Positions 2,054 through 11,245 of a DNA stretch of 11,322 nucleotides are shown in pieces. Made by a program: the position numbers and the translations under genes. Location of the stretch: NCBI GenBank assembly GCA_964492665.1, contig CAZBLA010000022.1, positions 1 through 11,322 on the forward strand. Reading direction: 5' to 3'. This stretch comes from Candidatus Micrarchaeota archaeon (GTDB taxonomy: Archaea; Micrarchaeota; Micrarchaeia; Micrarchaeales; Micrarchaeaceae). Position 1 is the stretch's first letter. Each line of letters opens with the position of its first letter. Below the pieces are notes generated by a model. That model ran no database searches, was not told where the DNA came from, and saw only the letters and a program-made list of their open reading frames with translations.

Positions 2054-3421
2054 ATGCTGTTGCGGACTAGGCTTTTTGGCAAAATGTATGAATTCCGAGA
2101 TATTAGAGAGCTTATGAGTAAGGCTAATGAGCCAAAATCCGGTGATGAATTGGCCGGCATTGCTGCTGTATCTGATGCGGAGAGAGTGGCAGCCAAATAT
2201 GTTTTGTCTGAAGTTACTTTAGGAGTTTTAAGGGACAACCCTGCCGTATCATACGAAAAAGACGATGTCACGCGTGTTATTGATGATGCAGTTAACGAAA
2301 CTATATATAACGAAATTAAAAGTTGGACGGTTGGAAGTTTTAGAGAATGGATACTTTCCGATCAAACCACACCTGCCATGATTAGACGAATCAGCAATGG
2401 TATCACAGGGGAAATAATATCGGCAGTCACAAAGTTGATGTCTAACCTCGACCTAATTTACGGAGCTATCAGAATTAGAGTTTCGTCGCATTGTGTTAAT
2501 ACCTCTGGCCTGCCCGGAACATTAGCAAGCCGTTTGCAGCCGAATCATCCCACCGATAGTATTGAGGGCATCCGGGCTGAAATCTACGAGGGACTTTCTT
2601 ATGGAGCAGGTGATAGTGTTATAGGCATTAATCCTGCCAATGATAGCTTGGCAAGTGTTATGAAACTGCTTGATATGACTTATAATGTTATTCAAACATG
2701 GGGAATCCCTACCCAGAACTGTGTATTAGCTCATGTAACTACACAAATGAAAGCTATGGAATCAGGGGCACCTGTAGGCTTAGTTTTTCAAAGTTTGGCC
2801 GGATCGCAAAAGGCAAATGAAAGCTTTGGTATTGATGTCGGTATGATGGACGAAGCATATAAGATGGCGCGGAAATATTGCTGGCCGGAAGGCCCTAACT
2901 ATATGTATTTTGAAACCGGTGAAGGATCAGCTTTGTCGGCCAATGCAAACAATGGCTGGGACCAACTCACTCTAGAAGCCAGAATCTATATGTTAGCTAA
3001 GCGCTGGAAACCTTATCAGGTGAATTCAGTTGTTGGTTTCATTGGTCCTGAGTACCTGTATGATGCCGTTCAAATTATACGTGCCGGTTTAGAAGATCAC
3101 TTCATGGGTAAATTAGCTGGTATCCCTATGGGTTGCGATGCTTGCTACACCAATCATGCTCGTACTAACCAAAATGATATTGAAAACTTGGCCGTATTGC
3201 TCTCTGCCGCCGGCTGCAACTATTTTATGGCCGTACCTATGGGTGATGATATAATGTTGGCTTATCAATGTACAAGCTACCATGATACACCATCGTTGCG
3301 TCAAACATTGAATTTGAAACCATTGCCCGAATTTGAGTTATGGCTGGAAGAGTTAGGACTTATAAAAAATGGCGTACTGACCGAAAAAGCAGGCGATCCA
3401 TCATTTTTCCTGAGTAAATAG
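2054..3421 (+). CDS. eutB: Ethanolamine ammonia-lyase large (heavy) subunit EutB
   Basis: At 455 aa it is near-collinear with enterobacterial EutB (453 aa). MLLRTRLFGKMYEFRDIRELMSKANEPKSGDELAGIAAVS matches MKLKTTLFGNVYQFKDVKEVLAKANELRSGDVLAGVAAAS. A strong SD lies upstream. Confidence 0.95.
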   Translation: MLLRTRLFGKMYEFRDIRELMSKANEPKSGDELAGIAAVSDAERVAAKYVLSEVTLGVLRDNPAVSYEKDDVTRVIDDAVNETIYNEIKSWTVGSFREWILSDQTTPAMIRRISNGITGEIISAVTKLMSNLDLIYGAIRIRVSSHCVNTSGLPGTLASRLQPNHPTDSIEGIRAEIYEGLSYGAGDSVIGINPANDSLASVMKLLDMTYNVIQTWGIPTQNCVLAHVTTQMKAMESGAPVGLVFQSLAGSQKANESFGIDVGMMDEAYKMARKYCWPEGPNYMYFETGEGSALSANANNGWDQLTLEARIYMLAKRWKPYQVNSVVGFIGPEYLYDAVQIIRAGLEDHFMGKLAGIPMGCDACYTNHARTNQNDIENLAVLLSAAGCNYFMAVPMGDDIMLAYQCTSYHDTPSLRQTLNLKPLPEFELWLEELGLIKNGVLTEKAGDPSFFLSK

Positions 3422-3501: not shown

Positions 3502-4413
3502 ATGATTGAAAAAAATGATATTCTCAGTATTGTACAAACAGTCTTAGATGAAATCGATAAACAGCGCAGCGAAGACATATATGATCAGCCTGAGACTTCC
3601 GTGGCCACAGATTATGATAGTAAGGCAGAGGCATTTAAAATTGACCTTCCAGATCCTACCGTTCCTGAATCGCGTCATGCTTCGGGTATAGATCATCCGC
3701 CTAATCCTGAAGGCTTGCAGGCATTAATGGCATCAACTCCATATCGTATCGGAGTGGGAAGGGCTGGGCCTCGCCCTCGCACTGCTGCTATGCTGCTATT
3801 CAGGGCTGATCATGCGGTCACCCAGGATGCACTGATGCATATAGTTGATTCACAAATGCTAACGAAGTTAGGACTATTTTCGGTTAAAAGCCAGGCTAGC
3901 ATAAGTCGTAAGGAATACTTAAAAAGACCTGACTTAGGACGTAAGTTAACTGATGAGGCTAAGCGCATAATTAATGAACGGTGTATAAAAAAACCCGATG
4001 TACAAATTTTTGTCGGTGACGGGCTGAGCGGAGCCGCAATTGACAGTAACCTTCCCAAGATTATGCCTGTTATGGAACAGGGATTCAAAACAGCCGGATT
4101 ATCAATGGGAACGCCATTCTTCGTTAAGAATGCTCGGGTGGGCTTATTAAATGATGTTAACAGTATAATTGATGCCAAAGTATGTGTTATACTTATAGGC
4201 GAGAGACCTGGTCTTGCTCGGGCTGAAAGTATGAGTATTTACATGGGATATCATCCTCAGCCGAACTCAACTGACGCCGATCGCAATGTTATTTGTAATA
4301 TTTATGAAGGTGGATTCAATCCCTTAGAAGCAGGAGCATCTGCGGTTCGACTTGCACAGAGAATGATTGAGTCTCATACAAGCGGAGTTGAATTGAAAGC
4401 AGAGGGCAAATAA
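3502..4413 (+). CDS. eutC: Ethanolamine ammonia-lyase small (light) subunit EutC, with an N-terminal encapsulation-peptide-like helix
   Basis: At 303 aa its position and size fit EutC. The core motif RIGVGRAGPRPRT is present. The N-terminal amphipathic helix MIEKNDILSIVQTVLDEI is followed by an acidic/proline-rich linker, as in EutC N-terminal targeting peptides. An AAAGGA SD lies 8 nt upstream. Confidence 0.9.
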   Translation: MIEKNDILSIVQTVLDEIDKQRSEDIYDQPETSVATDYDSKAEAFKIDLPDPTVPESRHASGIDHPPNPEGLQALMASTPYRIGVGRAGPRPRTAAMLLFRADHAVTQDALMHIVDSQMLTKLGLFSVKSQASISRKEYLKRPDLGRKLTDEAKRIINERCIKKPDVQIFVGDGLSGAAIDSNLPKIMPVMEQGFKTAGLSMGTPFFVKNARVGLLNDVNSIIDAKVCVILIGERPGLARAESMSIYMGYHPQPNSTDADRNVICNIYEGGFNPLEAGASAVRLAQRMIESHTSGVELKAEGK

Positions 4414-4430: not shown

Positions 4431-5087
4431 ATGTCAGTAATGGATCCGATTGTTCCAAAAATATTATCTGTTAGAATTATCCCCAATGTAAACCGCGGTT
4501 TTGCCGAAAAATTAAATTTGCGGTCTAACCAAAGAAGCTTAGGGTTGATAACCTGTAATATTGATGACTCTCTTTATGTGGCACTTGATGAAGGCACTAA
4601 AATGGCAGATGTAGAAGTGGTTTATGCTAAATCTTTCTATGCTGGATCGACTAATGCTTCGGGCCCATTATCCGGCGAAATAATCGGTATTTTTGCGGGA
4701 CCCAATCCGGTTGAAGTAGAATCCGCATTAAATGCTACCATTAGTTATTGCGAGAATGAAGCATGGTTCTATTCTGCTGATGATGATGGCAAAGATGTAT
4801 TTTTTCCACATAATATTTCTAGCACCGGCTCTTATCTTTCCAAAGTGGCCGGTATTTCTATAGGTGAGCCATTAGCATATCTCGTTGCTTGTCCGTTGGA
4901 AGCTACTTATGGAATTGACAAGGCATTAAAAGCTGCCGATGTTAAAATAATGGTTTGGTGGGAGCCTCCGTCGGAAACTAACTTCTCGGGTGGATTATTT
5001 TCAGGTACGCAAAGTGATTGTAAGGCAGCTTGCGCTGCTTTCAGCGAAGCCGTTCTGGAAGTTGTTAGTAATCCTATAAAGTTGTAG
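4431..5087 (+). CDS. eutL: BMC shell protein EutL (tandem permuted BMC domains, pseudohexameric trimer)
   Basis: The 218-aa product matches enterobacterial EutL (219 aa) along its whole length. Shared stretches include RSLGLI, EVVYA+S.YAG, TGSYLS..AGI..G.P.AYLVA.PLEATYGID.ALK.ADV and SETN.S...L.G.Q..CKAAC.AF.-AVLE. An SD GGAGTGG lies upstream. Confidence 0.9.
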   Translation: MSVMDPIVPKILSVRIIPNVNRGFAEKLNLRSNQRSLGLITCNIDDSLYVALDEGTKMADVEVVYAKSFYAGSTNASGPLSGEIIGIFAGPNPVEVESALNATISYCENEAWFYSADDDGKDVFFPHNISSTGSYLSKVAGISIGEPLAYLVACPLEATYGIDKALKAADVKIMVWWEPPSETNFSGGLFSGTQSDCKAACAAFSEAVLEVVSNPIKL

Positions 5088-5111: not shown

Positions 5112-6644
5112 ATGGATAATAACTATGATTTAGATTTGCAGTCGATTCAGGAAGCACGTCGGCTATCCGAAGCTTGTTATAAAGCTCAGCAGCAATTTAT
5201 TGCTTTTAACCAAGAACAGGTTGATAATGTATGCGCTGCCATGGCCGATGCTGCCTATAATGAGTCAAGACGGTTAGGGGAAATGGCTAAGGATGAAACC
5301 GGATACGGTATTGCCCTGCATAAGATGTTGAAGAATCAGCTGGGAAGCCGCAATTTATGGGAATCAATCAAGGATATCAAAACTGTTGGCATTATACGAG
5401 AAGATCGGGTAAAACATATAGTAGAGATCGGATGGCCAATGGGAGTTGTGGCAGCACTTACACCAAGTACTAATCCTACATCTACCACAATGTATAAAAT
5501 TTTGATTTCGGTTAAGAGTCGTAACGGTATTGTTGTAGCTCCGCACCCAGCGGCATATCATTGTTCTCTTGAAACGGCTAAAATTATGTCTAAAGCAGGA
5601 GAGGCTGCAGGCATGCCGCATGGTCTGGTTAGTTGCATGTCAAAGGTTTCACTTGCAGGCACACAGGAACTAATAGGGCATCGAAGGATATCGGTTATTC
5701 TCGCAACAGGTGGTTCAGCAATGGTTAGAGCTGCGCACAGTGTTGGCAAACCGGCCTACGGGGTGGGGCCAGGCAATGCACCCTGCTATGTGGATGGAAG
5801 CGCCGATATCAAGAAGGCTGCCCATGATATTGTTTCCAGCAAGGCTTTTGATAATTCACTTATCTGTGCCACGGAACAATCCATAGTAGTAGATAAGCTT
5901 ATAGCCTCCAAATTACGGTCAGAGATGGAACATATAGGAGCTTATTTTGTAAATCTAAAGCAAAAAACTGCTTTAGCCAATGTTCTTTTTTCACCAAAAG
6001 GAGTTATAAATCGATATAGTGTAGGACAGACTCCTGAATCTCTATCTCAAATGGCTGATATTCAGGTACCTGCCGGTACTCGTATTTTGGTTGTTCCATT
6101 AAACAAAGTAGGTAAAGAGGAGCCACTCTCGCGTGAAAAATTAACTACTGTGCTGGGATGGTATGAAGTTGACGGTTGGGAATCAGGTATAGAATGCTGT
6201 ATGAAACTGGTTAACTTTGGCGGCCGAGGTCATACCATGATTATTCATGCAACTGATAAGAATATAATTATGAATTTCGGTTTAAAAATACCGGTGTTCC
6301 GCATTTTAGTTAACACAATGGGTTCCTTGGGCGCAGTTGGAGGCACAACAAGCCTTTCACCTTCATTAACACTGGGTTCAGGGGGAATCGGTCATTCGAT
6401 AACCGGCGATAATATTACAACAACGCACTTATTGAACATTAAGCGAATTGCTTATGAAACAAAGGCACCACCCAAATTAGCCGTTATAGATACAAAACCT
6501 CAAACGAATTCCTCTAATGATACTTTTAGTGGTGATGGTAACCTAAATATAGAACAGATCAAAGTTGTTGTCAAAGCTGTGGTTGAGGAAGTGCTCCGCA
6601 GAAAAGCTAATATCAATTCTATAAAGAGGAGTGATAATAAATGA
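5112..6644 (+). CDS. eutE: CoA-acylating acetaldehyde dehydrogenase EutE/PduP family, with a C-terminal extension carrying an encapsulation-peptide-like helix
   Basis: The aldehyde dehydrogenase core is present ([21 protein letters not shown]...[19 protein letters not shown]). At 510 aa it is about 40 aa longer than EutE. The N-terminus begins directly in the catalytic core (..[19 protein letters not shown] aligns to the post-EP region of PduP/EutE). The C-terminal tail ...[33 protein letters not shown] resembles the EutE N-terminal EP (DIEQVVKAVLLKM). An AAGGAG SD lies upstream. Confidence 0.85.
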
Positions 6645-6832
6645 ACGCATCTGAAAAGGTCAACCTTGATAACGCTTTATCCGGACATAATAAGGTGAAT
6701 GAGACAAGGCCTAATCGTAAAAAAGTTGAAGCCAAATCTGATGCAACGGCTATGCATAAAAGAGCGGAGGAGAATCAGCTTGAGAAACCAAGCGAGTATG
6801 CTAAAAAATATACGAAACAGAAGGAGGAATAC

Positions 6833-7138
6833 ATGGATATTCAAATGATTGCACTGGGAATGATTGAAACGAAAGGATTAGTTGCTGCTATTGAGGCTTC
6901 CGATGCCATGGTAAAATCAGCGAACGTACGTTTAATTGGCAGTGAGTATACCGGAGGTGGTTATGTAACTGTTATGGTAAGGGGCGATGTAGGCGCAGTC
7001 AAGGCTGCCACAGATGCCGGAGCTGCAGCAGCTAAACGCGTAGGCGAACTGGTTTCAGTTCATGTTATACCACGCCCTCATTCTGACGTGGAGATGATAT
7101 TACCTCATAAAACCAAAGGAAGTTATGATGAGCATTAA
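6833..7138 (+). CDS. eutM: BMC-H hexameric shell protein (EutM/PduA type). Short form from ATG 6833; an in-frame upstream start at 6641 would add a 64-aa charged N-terminal extension.
   Basis: [87 protein letters not shown] is a near-canonical PF00936 BMC domain (EutM: [79 protein letters not shown]). A strong SD AAGGAGGA lies 6 nt upstream of ATG 6833. The frame stays open back to ATG 6641, which overlaps the eutE stop as ATGA and has its own SD AAGAGGAG. Confidence 0.85.
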
Positions 7139-7168: not shown

Positions 7169-7723
7169 ATGAGGCGCTTTTTCTCAGCAGCGGATATACG
7201 TAGTTTGGCAGAAAAAGATGGATGCCGATATTTGCTGCTTGCTTCTACTGATATAATTACTCCTGAAGCTTTAGATATAGCCCATGAAGTAGGTATTCAA
7301 ATTCATAGGAAGGGGGATATACCTGGCTGTGTTTCGCTGCCACCCTTAATAGGTCGGAGTACAGCTCCGGGTACACCTATTATTTTAATTAAATCAAATT
7401 CTATCCGCCTAAAGCCTTTTGCCTACGATGTGGGTCATCCGGAGATGAACATACAACTGTCTGATATAATTACTGCGGCTAACAGATCACCAATGGCAGC
7501 TGGATTTATGACGTGGAATAAAGGATTCTTTCCCTGGACTCTTGATTACTATGAAATTGACCTGGTTATTGATGGTCAACTTGAAATACGGACCGAAGGC
7601 CGAAATATTATAGGCAATAAGGGGGATGTGATCTATATCCCTAAAGGAAATAGTATTTTTTTTGGTTCACCAAGCTATGCTAAAACTTTCTATGTTACCT
7701 TTCCAGCTGAATGGGAATCCTGA
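7169..7723 (+). CDS. eutQ: EutQ-like protein: N-terminal EutQ-type module, linker, and a C-terminal cupin domain (EutQ family acetate kinase / BMC-associated cupin)
   Basis: The C-terminal roughly 90 aa (MTWNKGFFPWTLDYYEIDLVIDGQLEI...GDVIYIPKGNSIFFGSPSYAKTFYVTFPAEW) has the cupin signature typical of EutQ. The N-terminal FSAADIRSLAEKDG....DIITPEALDIAHEVGIQI resembles the start of Salmonella EutQ, as recalled (..LITANDIRAAHARGEQ...IITPEAREVAELLGFTI). The SD is weak (AAAGA). The gene lies between eutM and eutJ. Confidence 0.7.
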   Translation: MRRFFSAADIRSLAEKDGCRYLLLASTDIITPEALDIAHEVGIQIHRKGDIPGCVSLPPLIGRSTAPGTPIILIKSNSIRLKPFAYDVGHPEMNIQLSDIITAANRSPMAAGFMTWNKGFFPWTLDYYEIDLVIDGQLEIRTEGRNIIGNKGDVIYIPKGNSIFFGSPSYAKTFYVTFPAEWES

Positions 7724-7737
7724 AGATGATTATAGTT

Positions 7738-7767
7738 TTGGTTAGTATTTAAAAAGCTGTATATAAT
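7738..7767 (+). promoter_or_regulatory. Candidate sigma-70-type promoter in the 146-nt eutQ-eutJ gap
   Basis: TTGGTT (7738-7743), an 18-nt spacer, then TATAAT (7762-7767). The call is by eye only. It would drive eutJ and the downstream genes. Confidence 0.3.
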
Positions 7768-7869
7768 GTTAATACATAAGCAGTAGACAGCTATTGAATA
7801 TTTTGAATCGCCGCAATGATGTTTGTGCTATACGATAAACTTATCACGCGGTTATTATTATGAGTAAGT

Positions 7870-8805
7870 ATGAATCCGAAACTTAATGCATTATTGGCAA
7901 AGGTCGCGGCAGTTATGCATAATGACCATGATAATATTTCTATGCCTCAGCAGCTATCCGATAATTCTAACTATTGCGACAGTAAAATTTTAACCAACCC
8001 TCTTGCATTGTACAGCCGTGGCTTATCCTCTGACAAGCTTCAAAACCGAGTTCATGTTGGCATTGATATAGGAACGGCATATACCGTTTTAATTGTACTT
8101 GATGAGCGTATGCAACCTATGACCGGCGAATACCGTTTTGCTCAGTTTGTACGTGATGGTTTAGTGGTCGATTCACAAAAAGCAATAAGCATGGTGCAGA
8201 AACTAAAACATATAGCCGAAAATAGATTGGGTTTTAAGCTTAGTTCGGCTGCTACCGCTTATCCTCCCGGCGTATTGTTGACTGAAATCAAAGCTAAACA
8301 ATATGTTGTAAATTGTGCAGGTTTTGAATGCGATCAGTCCATTAATGAGCCTACAGCGGCTAACCTCGTATTACAAATAAAAAATGGGGCAATAGTTGAT
8401 ATTGGAGGAGGTACTACCGGTATTGCTGTTGTCAATGATGGACATGTTGTGTATACTGCAGATGAGCCTACGGGAGGTACGCATTTTTCTTTGGTTATTG
8501 CCGGAGCATTGAACATAGAGTTTGAAAAAGCAGAGCTTCTAAAAAAAGATCCAAAACAGCATAGCAAGATTTATCCTCTTGTGAAGCCGGTAATGGAAAA
8601 GATAGGTACTATCGTTGCAAACCACTTATTGGACCAAGATGTTAGTACCATATATTTGGTAGGTGGTACATCTTGTTTCATTGGCATAGGTAAAGTGATC
8701 CAGAAGGTAACAGGCATAACGACTATTATACCCGCTTATCCATTGTTTATTACACCATTAGGTGTAGCAATGTTTAATGCAAATAATGATAAAGCATCCT
8801 ATTAG
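7870..8805 (+). CDS. eutJ: EutJ, actin/Hsp70-fold chaperone-like protein of the EUT microcompartment. The start is uncertain (alternative in-frame ATGs at 7915 and 7942).
   Basis: VHVGIDIGTAYTVLIVLD, INEPTAANL, VVDIGGGTTGIAVV, ADEPTGGTHFSL and IYLVGGTSC match EutJ motifs (E. coli: LGVDLGTCDVV, LDEPTAVA, VVDIGGGTTGIAIV, ADEATGGHHISL, LWLAGGSC). The 311-aa ORF is about 30 aa longer at the N-terminus than typical EutJ. The N-terminus MNPKLNALLAKVAAVM is an amphipathic helix. Confidence 0.85.
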   Translation: MNPKLNALLAKVAAVMHNDHDNISMPQQLSDNSNYCDSKILTNPLALYSRGLSSDKLQNRVHVGIDIGTAYTVLIVLDERMQPMTGEYRFAQFVRDGLVVDSQKAISMVQKLKHIAENRLGFKLSSAATAYPPGVLLTEIKAKQYVVNCAGFECDQSINEPTAANLVLQIKNGAIVDIGGGTTGIAVVNDGHVVYTADEPTGGTHFSLVIAGALNIEFEKAELLKKDPKQHSKIYPLVKPVMEKIGTIVANHLLDQDVSTIYLVGGTSCFIGIGKVIQKVTGITTIIPAYPLFITPLGVAMFNANNDKASY

Positions 8806-8988: not shown

Positions 8989-9621
8989 ATGGTTAATAAT
9001 TCACACCCTTTTCAATTACGGGCATATTGCTATTTAGATCGAACCCAGCCGCAGTATTCTTCTTTCATAGGGACCGTTACCCAAGGTGATTTACTAGTAC
9101 AGGGTATGGCCTCTCTATACATAGAAGTTGCCCCCGGCAGTGATGTTTTTAATTTAGTAGATATTGCTTTAAAGGCCACTGAGGCTAGACCAGGTGCTCA
9201 GATTGTTGAGCGTGAGTTCGGCATGTTTGAAGTTCACTCACAATCACAGGAAGCTGTGCTGGAAACCGGGCGTACTGTGCTGAATCGCCTTCAATTAAAA
9301 GAAACAGATAGGGTAAAACCTAAAGTCACTTCAGCTCAATTTATAACTAACGTTGACCCCTACCAAGCTCAACTACTTAATCGTTTTCGTAGAGGAAGCA
9401 TGCTGCTTGCAAGTGATACTCTTTTAGTTCTTGAAATAGCTCCTGCAGCTTATATAAACCTTGCTGCGAATGAGGCTGAAAAAAGGGCAAATATCAAATT
9501 GATTCATGTTTCCGGTGTAGGTCGTTACGGCCGAATGTGGCTGGGTGGGACGGAGTCTGAAATGTCCACAGCTAAAGCGGCAGCTATAGCAGCAATTGGA
9601 AATATCGAAGGAAAGGAATAA
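8989..9621 (+). CDS. Divergent tandem BMC-domain-like protein (putative BMC-T shell or shell-associated protein), 210 aa
   Basis: Two repeats of about 90 aa each align by eye to the canonical BMC-H pattern ([30 protein letters not shown]...GGG....[15 protein letters not shown]). Repeat 1 is LYIEVAPGSDVFNLVDIALKATEARPGAQIV....GMFEVHSQSQEAVLETGRTVL. Repeat 2 is VLEIAPAAYINLAANEAEKRANIKLIHVSGVGRYGRMWLGGTESEMSTAKAAAIAAIG. The second repeat appears to lack the final beta-strand. No PduL motifs (RHIHLS) are present. A strong SD AAGAGGAGG lies 6 nt upstream. The call rests on motif similarity only. Confidence 0.45.
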   Translation: MVNNSHPFQLRAYCYLDRTQPQYSSFIGTVTQGDLLVQGMASLYIEVAPGSDVFNLVDIALKATEARPGAQIVEREFGMFEVHSQSQEAVLETGRTVLNRLQLKETDRVKPKVTSAQFITNVDPYQAQLLNRFRRGSMLLASDTLLVLEIAPAAYINLAANEAEKRANIKLIHVSGVGRYGRMWLGGTESEMSTAKAAAIAAIGNIEGKE

Positions 9622-9701
9622 TAAGTCCAAATATACCGTATCACAACTATTATTCAATGACGATAACAATATAATTATAATTTAAAAAAGGAGAATATAC
9701 C

Positions 9702-10160
9702 ATGAAAACATTTTATACTGAACAAGATATCAGTAATATGCATTCAAAAGGTATGGTTGAAATAGAGATAGATGATGATACGGTACTAACAGATATAGCT
9801 CGAGAGAAAGCCATTGCTGTAGGATTGCACATTAACCAGGTTAAGAGGATATGCGATCATGGAAAAAAGCTTGAGACAGATATATCTCCTACTTGTATTG
9901 CCAATAAAACACTATCACTGCCTCATGATTCTACTATCTCTTCCTACAATGAATCAATGTTATCACCTGTATCTTTATCGGATCGTAATGTCCTGGATTC
10001 AAAACTAATTAACGGTATTAAATCCGCTGTTATTGCTAAACTTGGCAATGATATTGCAATGGACAATGGCCTTTTAGAACAGATAATTTCTACTGTCCTA
10101 TTACTTTTCAATTCTAAGTCTCAATCTAATCAATTAATAGACTTTTTGCAAAACTCTTGA
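9702..10160 (+). CDS. Hypothetical BMC-associated protein: EutQ-N-terminal-like module, Ser-rich linker and two encapsulation-peptide-like amphipathic helices; no catalytic domain recognized
   Basis: A strong SD AAAAAGGAGA lies 7 nt upstream. Residues 3-45 (TFYTEQDISNMHSKGMVEIEIDDDTVLTDIAREKAIAVGLHI) align with the N-terminus of the eutQ product in this same window (FFSAADIRSLAEKDGCRYLLLASTDIITPEALDIAHEVGIQI). Residues 98-115 (LDSKLINGIKSAVIAKLG) and 123-136 (GLLEQIISTVLLLF) resemble BMC encapsulation peptides (compare EutE DIEQVVKAVLLKM). It is the last gene of the co-directional cluster. Confidence 0.6.
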   Translation: MKTFYTEQDISNMHSKGMVEIEIDDDTVLTDIAREKAIAVGLHINQVKRICDHGKKLETDISPTCIANKTLSLPHDSTISSYNESMLSPVSLSDRNVLDSKLINGIKSAVIAKLGNDIAMDNGLLEQIISTVLLLFNSKSQSNQLIDFLQNS

Positions 10161-10533: not shown

Positions 10534-10851
10534 TTATCTTGAACCCTTGCAAAACTCAACATTTTGCTTTTCAACATATTCGTCGGAAGGGTCAAGTTTT
10601 TCATCTATTTTATAGAGATAAACCAGCACCCTTGCTATAGCTTGGTATAAATCGGGTGGTATTTGGATATTCACATCAAGTTTGACAAGTTCTTCGACAA
10701 GGGCACTGTTTTCTATTACAGGTATATTATTCTCTCTCGCTACGGCTCTAATTCTTTGAGCTGCTTGTCCTGAGCCGGCTGCGACAAGCTTTGGAGCATC
10801 CATACTTTTTTTGTATAGAAGTGCGGCTGCTTTTTTATCCTTTATAAGCAA
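10534..10851 (-). CDS. Small FlhB C-terminal-domain-like protein (YlqH/FhlB-domain family, type III export-apparatus switch protein paralog); apparent TTG start
   Basis: KKAAALLYKKSMDAPKLVAAGSGQAAQRIRAVARENNIPVIENSALVEELVKLDVNIQIPPDLYQAIARVLVYLYKI matches the FlhB cytoplasmic C-terminal fragment pattern (AVAL+YD....APKVVAKG.G..A..I...A.E..IP+.E...L...L......IP..LY.AVA.IL.FVY). There is no in-frame ATG; the first codon is TTG at 10851. It overlaps the upstream ORF by 17 nt. Confidence 0.65.
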   Translation of the reverse strand: MLIKDKKAAALLYKKSMDAPKLVAAGSGQAAQRIRAVARENNIPVIENSALVEELVKLDVNIQIPPDLYQAIARVLVYLYKIDEKLDPSDEYVEKQNVEFCKGSR

Positions 10852-11245
10852 AATTTCCCAGCCCTCTCAACGTAATTGATAATACAAACCCGCTGTCTTT
10901 TGTTTTATTGCCATTGGTAAGTACTGCAGGAATATCTCGTGTAAACATCGAAAGATCTACCCCCCAGCATGATTGTTTTATAACCAGATCAAATTGATTG
11001 TTTGAAAAAAAACGGTTCATTATATCGTAGTCGTTTGTAGTTGACATGCTAAATGATTTTGATATCGGCAAAGCAAGTTCCGTATTTATCTGTTCCGATT
11101 GTTTTTCAAAATTGCTGTCTTTGCTGAGTTCATAGCCTATCTTTGCCGTAACTTTACCGATATATGATATATCACTGCTGAGATCGACAAGTTGATGTTT
11201 GTAATAATCATAATGCAGCCTAAGATTATAGTTGATTTTACTCAT
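10835..11245 (-). CDS. Hypothetical protein (136 aa), upstream partner of the FlhB-C-like gene; function unknown
   Basis: It is an open frame in an AT-rich context. It is translationally coupled at both ends: TGAATG with an upstream partial ORF, and a 17-nt overlap with the downstream gene. It has no obvious SD and I recognized no family motif. Confidence 0.4.
   Translation of the reverse strand: MSKINYNLRLHYDYYKHQLVDLSSDISYIGKVTAKIGYELSKDSNFEKQSEQINTELALPISKSFSMSTTNDYDIMNRFFSNNQFDLVIKQSCWGVDLSMFTRDIPAVLTNGNKTKDSGFVLSITLRGLGNFAYKG

Follow-up and report, generated by a model that had tools for sequence, protein, structure and literature searches.

A stand-alone protein family resembling the EutQ N-terminal region: candidate shell-to-cargo adaptors of EUT3 microcompartments

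Described links between shell and cargo

The closest described relative of the protein reported here is enterobacterial EutQ, in particular its N-terminal region (residues 1-99 in Salmonella, approximately positions 1-105 of the NCBIfam model NF012001). In Salmonella EutQ, the H1/H2 segment (residues 9-41) binds the shell at the EutM/EutL interface, residues 42-61 form a flexible spacer, and the H3/H4 segment (residues 62-99) binds the encapsulation peptides (EPs) of EutC and EutE (Yang et al. 2025, PMC12487888). Binding of the EutC peptide is abolished by L89A and by V93A, and molecular dynamics implicates E64 and R67 on the EutQ side and brings I6, V10, V13 and M14 of EutC into contact with EutQ (PMC12487888).

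The 152-aa protein described here shares with this region an N-terminal domain corresponding to H1/H2, a flexible linker and a helix pair, arranged in identical order. It differs from enterobacterial EutQ in lacking the cupin/acetate-kinase domain, and therefore the dimerisation which that domain provides. It is also encoded by a separate gene that coexists with an EutQ devoid of H3/H4. Sequence identity is only about 25-30%, and the family to which the protein belongs resides in EUT3 and SPU6 loci, mostly of Chloroflexota, beside a gene for a double-stacking BMC-T shell protein (BMC-Tdp).

Other non-enzymatic, partly disordered bridges between shell and cargo include CcmN, CsoS2 and PduB(1-37), discussed by Yang et al. 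2025 (PMC12487888). No sequence relationship between these and the 152-aa protein was detected, and their modules and mode of cargo recognition differ; the analogy is functional only. A further point of comparison is TIGR02536 ("eut_hyp"), a family of Firmicutes EUT2 loci. Positions 162-195 of that model weakly resemble the N-terminal domain and match 8 of 40 family members (best E = 9.6e-4), but the match reaches 16.1 bits against a cutoff of 152.6, spans about 34 residues and leaves the remainder unrelated, so that the 152-aa protein is not a full-length member. Since Gram-positive EutQs lack the first three helices (Yang et al., PMC12487888), TIGR02536 proteins in EUT2 loci may carry a docking module.

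An EUT3 locus and its final gene

The window analysed here is a stretch of 11,322 nucleotides from a Candidatus Micrarchaeota archaeon (assembly GCA_964492665.1, contig CAZBLA010000022.1), with a GC content of about 40%. It contains a single plus-strand operon that runs from EutN (113-415) through EutA (435-1910), EutB (2054-3421), EutC (3502-4413), an EutL-like BMC-T protein with PF00936 in two stretches (4431-5087), an acetylating aldehyde dehydrogenase (EutE, 5112-6644), an EutM-type BMC-H protein (6641-7138; PF00936, E = 1.8e-29; NF012018), EutQ (7169-7723), an EutJ-like protein (7870-8805) and a CcmP/CsoS1D-like BMC-Tdp (8989-9621; NF053796, E = 2.7e-75) to the 152-aa ORF (9702-10160). 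The EUT3 type is defined by EutABC, an aldehyde dehydrogenase (AldDh) and BMC-Tdp, the last of which is absent from other EUT types (Sutter et al. 2021, PMC8217296). The locus can be assigned to EUT3 because EutABC co-occur with a BMC-Tdp shell gene; AldDh is present as well, and EutL-like, EutM, EutN, EutQ and EutJ proteins are encoded in addition. No adenosyltransferase, PTAC, alcohol dehydrogenase or EutH gene was found in the window, and no Rfam family matched it.

The 152-aa ORF begins with ATG, preceded by the Shine-Dalgarno sequence AAGGAGA (9688-9694, plus strand), as read from the sequence, with 8 nt between GGAG and the start codon. This agrees with the initial annotation, which had noted a strong ribosome-binding site and had placed the gene last in its cluster. 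No plus-strand gene follows it, and the two downstream genes are convergent: a flagellar-type gene resembling the FlhB C-terminal domain (10534-10851, minus strand; TIGR00789, E = 6.6e-23) and a 136-aa ORF without a significant family match (10835-11245, minus strand), which overlap by 17 nt. A terminator scan downstream of the operon returned weak 5-bp stems at most.

Two further features of the operon deserve mention. The EutM ATG overlaps the EutE stop codon (ATGA), and a Lys/Glu-rich extension of about 68 residues (6641-6844) precedes the BMC domain of EutM. This extension has a partial counterpart in some relatives (loci L011 and L014) and is missing in others, leaving either the start codon of EutM or the role of its extension uncertain. 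The gap between EutQ and EutJ measures 146 bp in the window (7724-7869). In the related locus L002, a PduO-type cobalamin adenosyltransferase (PF01923; L002:7394-8248) lies between these two genes, and L007, L008, L010 and L012 show a gap of comparable size there.

Two enzymes of the operon carry candidate cargo peptides. EutC has an N-terminal EP (MIEKNDILSIVQTVLDEIDK; 3502-3561, plus strand), in which I6, I9, V10 and V13 (E. coli numbering) are invariant across E. coli EutC and the EUT3 EutCs aligned. The aldehyde dehydrogenase, which is of the TIGR02518/AdhE-N type, has a 22-aa EP-like helix near its C-terminus (6540-6605, plus strand), unlike Salmonella EutE, whose EP is N-terminal. A conserved C-terminal helix following a variable linker is common to the aldehyde dehydrogenases of EUT3 and SPU6, and a C-terminal EP has been predicted for SPU6 AldDh (PMC11585597). 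In one SPU6 locus (L026), EP-like helices are found on DERA and RPI, both N-terminal, and on AldDh. A C-terminal EP on the aldehyde dehydrogenases of both types fits the link between EUT3 and SPU6, whose BMC-Tdp proteins form adjacent clades (Sutter et al. 2021, PMC8217296).

Architecture and relatives of the 152-aa protein

AlphaFold2 models of the 152-aa protein were built from a 12-sequence and then a 40-sequence alignment, and both give the same picture. The N-terminal domain (residues 1-48; 9702-9845, plus strand) adopts a beta-alpha-beta-beta-alpha-beta arrangement with pLDDT values of 93-98 in the deeper alignment. It is followed by a linker (residues 49-99; 9846-9998) predicted to be disordered (pLDDT 35-57), and by two helices with pLDDT values of about 85 in the deeper alignment. 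Helix 1 comprises residues 100-114 (9999-10043; ..INGIKSAVIAKL) and helix 2 residues 122-138 (10065-10115; NGLLEQIISTVLLLF), joined by a fixed turn (LG..D). The protein ends with a tail (residues 139-152; 10116-10157) that has a mean column identity of 0.04 and resembles that of only P0014 among the close relatives aligned. In the family alignment, mean column identity is 0.65 in the N-domain, 0.16 in the linker, 0.59 in helix 1 and 0.57 in helix 2, making the C-terminal helices the second conserved block of the family.

The linker is Ser-rich, as had been claimed, with 9 serines among the 48 residues 51-98. Its sequence varies across the family and its length ranges from 8 to 55 residues among 40 homologs. 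Composition varies too: the Ser/Asn-rich style of the window protein is shared only by P0002 and P0014, and Chloroflexota relatives have Pro/Ala-rich linkers.

The initial annotation had recognised no catalytic fold, and that observation withstood each search. Pfam returned nothing at E <= 10 for the 152-aa protein and nothing for 10 diverse homologs. A profile search of PDB sequences yielded no meaningful relative (prohibitin, at E = 0.18, is noise). The predicted structure shows no globular enzyme fold over residues 50-152, only the disordered linker and two helices. The cupin barrel of the EutQ family is likewise absent, the C-terminus lying about 15 residues past helix 2.

The protein is colinear with the first part of EutQ. 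A profile of the family aligns with residues 1-107 of E. coli K-12 EutQ through N-domain, linker and both helices (hhalign E = 4.4e-6). Taken separately, the N-domain sub-profile matches EutQ 1-47 with an hhalign probability of 94.7% (E = 5.6e-8), and the helix-pair sub-profile matches H3/H4 with a probability of 73.4% (E = 3e-5, 30 columns) against an EutQ profile of low diversity. That profile is shallow because the search with the EutQ N-region yielded nearly only enterobacterial and frameshifted sequences. Helix 1 aligns with H3 (QRIREAIIAQL) and helix 2 with H4. Against E. coli EutQ alone, the helix HMM scores 3.6 bits, with its match at QRIRETIIAQL, a score equalled by 5 of 3000 shuffles. 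These alignments argue with moderate confidence for homology of the helix pair to H3/H4.

The NCBIfam EutQ model NF012001 is matched by 24 of 40 family members (best E = 4.6e-6); in the window protein the match covers model positions 1-67 only and reaches 19.8 bits against a cutoff of 193. In the hhalign register, L89 and V93 of EutQ fall on I128 and V132 of the 152-aa protein; conservation of V132 in the family alignment is 90% or more. E64 and R67 of EutQ are not conserved in the window protein; the position of R67 is occupied by G105, though the family consensus there is R.

Within the window locus, the N-domain has a second carrier. The N-terminus of the 152-aa protein had been described as a copy of the N-terminal module of the EutQ encoded in the same locus. 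The resemblance is real, since family-versus-family profiles of the N-domain and EUT3 EutQ align over 50 columns with an hhalign probability of 75% and E = 2.6e-5. "Copy", however, overstates it: identity in that alignment is 26%, and BLASTP of the 152-aa protein against the same-locus EutQ gave no alignment. In a Smith-Waterman comparison, residues 1-50 of the two proteins scored 40, with shuffles at 20.6 +/- 4.1 and 1 of 2000 reaching 40.

EutQ of the window and ten aligned orthologs consist of the N-domain (residues 1-47 in the window protein), a linker of about 23 residues and a cupin domain (PF06249, residues 85-184), with no H3/H4 pair. As EUT3 EutQ comprises only N-domain and cupin, the helix pair of the window locus is confined to the 152-aa protein. 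More generally, the helix-pair HMM matched exactly one ORF per locus, which was always the small protein and never EutQ. The N-domain HMM matched the small protein, the N-termini of EUT3 EutQs (E = 4e-7 to 1e-3) and one aldehyde dehydrogenase fusion. In this fusion, from a Deltaproteobacteria MAG (JARRNM010000206.1; L018:3596-5437), the N-domain (MKTFYTERDIENL...) and a linker of about 70 residues precede a 613-aa aldehyde dehydrogenase, which retains its C-terminal EP-like helix.

The two jobs of enterobacterial EutQ appear to be split over two EUT3 genes. EUT3 EutQ would combine the docking domain with a cupin enzyme domain, and the 152-aa protein would combine the docking domain with the sole copy of the peptide-binding helices in the locus. 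In SPU6 loci, the family protein would be the only such factor.

The family is large. An HMMER scan of 1.84 billion representative proteins returned 376 representatives (E <= 1e-3), of which 156 reach E <= 1e-10. Most are stand-alone proteins of 90-150 aa that align with the profile over its full length, accompanied by some longer members in which two or three N-domain repeats precede the helix pair. A word-indexed search with a broader alignment gave 1,712 clusters; the best 120 of these all carry the source name "hypothetical" and lack a Pfam domain.

Longer members include P0021, P0028, P0032, P0037, P0055 and P0139, with 187-255 aa and two or three tandem N-domain repeats. The first repeat is divergent in P0032, P0037, P0055 and P0139, where it takes the form "ITEAELRELWQNG...TRFTPAA.DFL". 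The C-terminal helix pair closes P0028, P0032, P0037 and P0055; P0021 has a different ending, and in P0139 nothing follows the final N-domain. Such tandem N-domains could allow multivalent shell binding. The occurrence of the N-domain on EutQ, in the L018 fusion and as two or three repeats in longer members suggests that it is a portable docking or targeting module.

Closer relatives come from EUT3 loci, almost all of them in Chloroflexota MAGs (Anaerolineae, Caldilineaceae), and those more distant relatives that were examined belong to SPU6 loci. The SPU6 gene order is GntR, RpiB, DeoC, EutN, AldDh, BMC-H, (EutJ), BMC-Tdp, family gene, EutN, EutN, and no EutQ or cupin protein is encoded in the SPU6 loci examined. 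Few microcompartment types are as widespread as SPU. An SPU6 operon studied in 2024 contains hypothetical proteins described as having neither homology to BMC-related proteins nor a Pfam assignment (PMC11585597), and these may include a family member. Among the papers searched, none mentions EutQ and SPU6 together.

In the window, the family gene lies directly 3' of a BMC-Tdp gene. The same holds for each of the 21 further EUT3 and SPU6 loci whose upstream DNA was readable, and the shortest intergenic gaps measure 8-18 nt. The upstream BMC-Tdp orthologs carry PF27545 (CsoS1D_N). When the presence of the gene was profiled across related loci, it was found at the same position in every locus examined, neither absent nor pseudogenized. 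In L004 (9260-10390), the BMC-Tdp and adaptor genes form an isolated pair beside DDE transposase and RHS-repeat genes, with no further eut gene within 10 kb on either side; this pair may be a satellite locus or a remnant. A spurious ORF at 9702-10160 was considered and rejected because both modules and the gene position are conserved across the family.

A candidate adaptor and its alternatives

The 152-aa protein is probably a stand-alone shell-to-cargo adaptor of the EUT3 microcompartment, resembling the EutQ N-terminal region. The folded 48-residue N-domain, as the counterpart of H1/H2, would dock on the shell from within, probably where BMC-H and BMC-T tiles meet, an interface for which EutM together with a BMC-T, such as the EutL-like protein, are candidate partners. 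The disordered linker would act as a tether. The C-terminal helix pair, as the counterpart of H3/H4, would capture amphipathic EPs, with the EutC N-terminus and the aldehyde dehydrogenase C-terminus as the proposed ligands. The analysis shows the architecture, homology, conservation and synteny of the protein; from homology and gene context we infer its function, including the identity of the shell partner and both binding activities, which are those of the Salmonella homolog. The earlier proposal of a non-enzymatic adaptor or organiser built from shell and cargo interaction modules gains support from the colinearity with EutQ 1-107 and from the separate match of each module. Further support comes from the Salmonella precedent, the EPs on EutC and the aldehyde dehydrogenases, the lack of the helix pair in EUT3 EutQ, the recurrence of the N-domain on other carriers and the conserved gene position. 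Points against it are the moderate strength of the helix-pair match, the loss of the E64 and R67 residues in the window protein, and a helix 2 (LLEQIISTVLLLF) that is more uniformly hydrophobic than amphipathic. What appears to be new is the occurrence of the EutQ linker function as a separate, widespread and unannotated protein family.

The C-terminal helices could themselves be EPs, as the initial annotation proposed when it described both as amphipathic and EP-like. The protein would then be a scaffold that co-aggregates with EP-bearing enzymes by helix bundling, or that inserts into shell grooves, with the N-domain as a second contact. Like the EPs of EutC, EutE, PduP and PduD, the two helices are short, hydrophobic-patterned (IKSAVIAKL, LLEQIISTVL) and borne on a poorly conserved linker. 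EPs have been reported to drive the aggregation of cargo and to bind in the grooves that separate shell tiles (PMC11585597), and EutQ H3/H4 is itself aggregation-prone (PMC12487888). Both helices are indeed predicted and conserved, but the hydrophobic moment of the pair is modest. A cargo EP is a single amphipathic helix on an enzyme, as on EutC, AldDh, DERA and RPI; the 152-aa protein has no enzyme domain, and its helices form a conserved, hairpin-like unit with a fixed turn. Because this unit aligns in register with the EP-binding H3/H4 of EutQ, the positions of L89 and V93 included, the helices are better read as EP receptors, and it is unlikely that they are EPs themselves. A role as competitor of EutQ for shell docking sites, regulating EutQ packaging, would draw on the homologous N-domains of the two proteins in the locus. 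It is very improbable: the conserved helix pair would be left unexplained, and it cannot be the general role, since the family occurs at least as often in SPU6 loci, where neither EutQ nor a cupin protein is encoded.

The strict adjacency to BMC-Tdp is not accounted for by the Salmonella model, in which the partners are EutM and EutL. The docking site could involve the BMC-Tdp tile, or the protein could have a BMC-Tdp-specific role. It might even be a dedicated partner of the upstream BMC-Tdp that helps in assembly, serves as a plug or regulates the gated pore, with cargo recruitment not its main role. The invariant gene order and short gaps point in this direction, as do the persistence of the pair in L004 and the adjacent clades of the EUT3 and SPU6 BMC-Tdp proteins. 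An interaction cannot be read from gene order by itself, however; nothing in the sequence suggests binding at a pore, and all three modules are already explained by homology to the EutQ linker region, which makes a partner role of this kind quite unlikely. A contact with BMC-Tdp is compatible with the adaptor model, as the N-domain could dock at a BMC-H/BMC-Tdp interface. The family could also be a minimal modular adaptor specific to BMC-Tdp, an idea that is speculative and, in our estimation, unlikely. The N-domain would sit on BMC-Tdp or at the BMC-H/BMC-Tdp interface, every EP-tagged enzyme would be tethered beside the large gated pore, with packaging coupled to metabolite entry and exit, and variants with two or three N-domains would cross-link tiles. 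If true, these microcompartments would be organised in a way so far described for no system, and engineering would gain a ready two-part tag system.

The adaptor reading provides a specific candidate for linking shell and cargo in EUT3 and SPU6, two types without a previously known cargo-packaging factor. It would mean that the linker function of EutQ exists in nature without an enzyme domain, on a docking domain whose apparent portability extends from EutQ to an aldehyde dehydrogenase fusion and tandem repeats. A protein of about 90-150 aa could be of use in loading engineered shells. About 1,700 clusters of proteins, "hypothetical" in all of the best 120, would gain a testable function.
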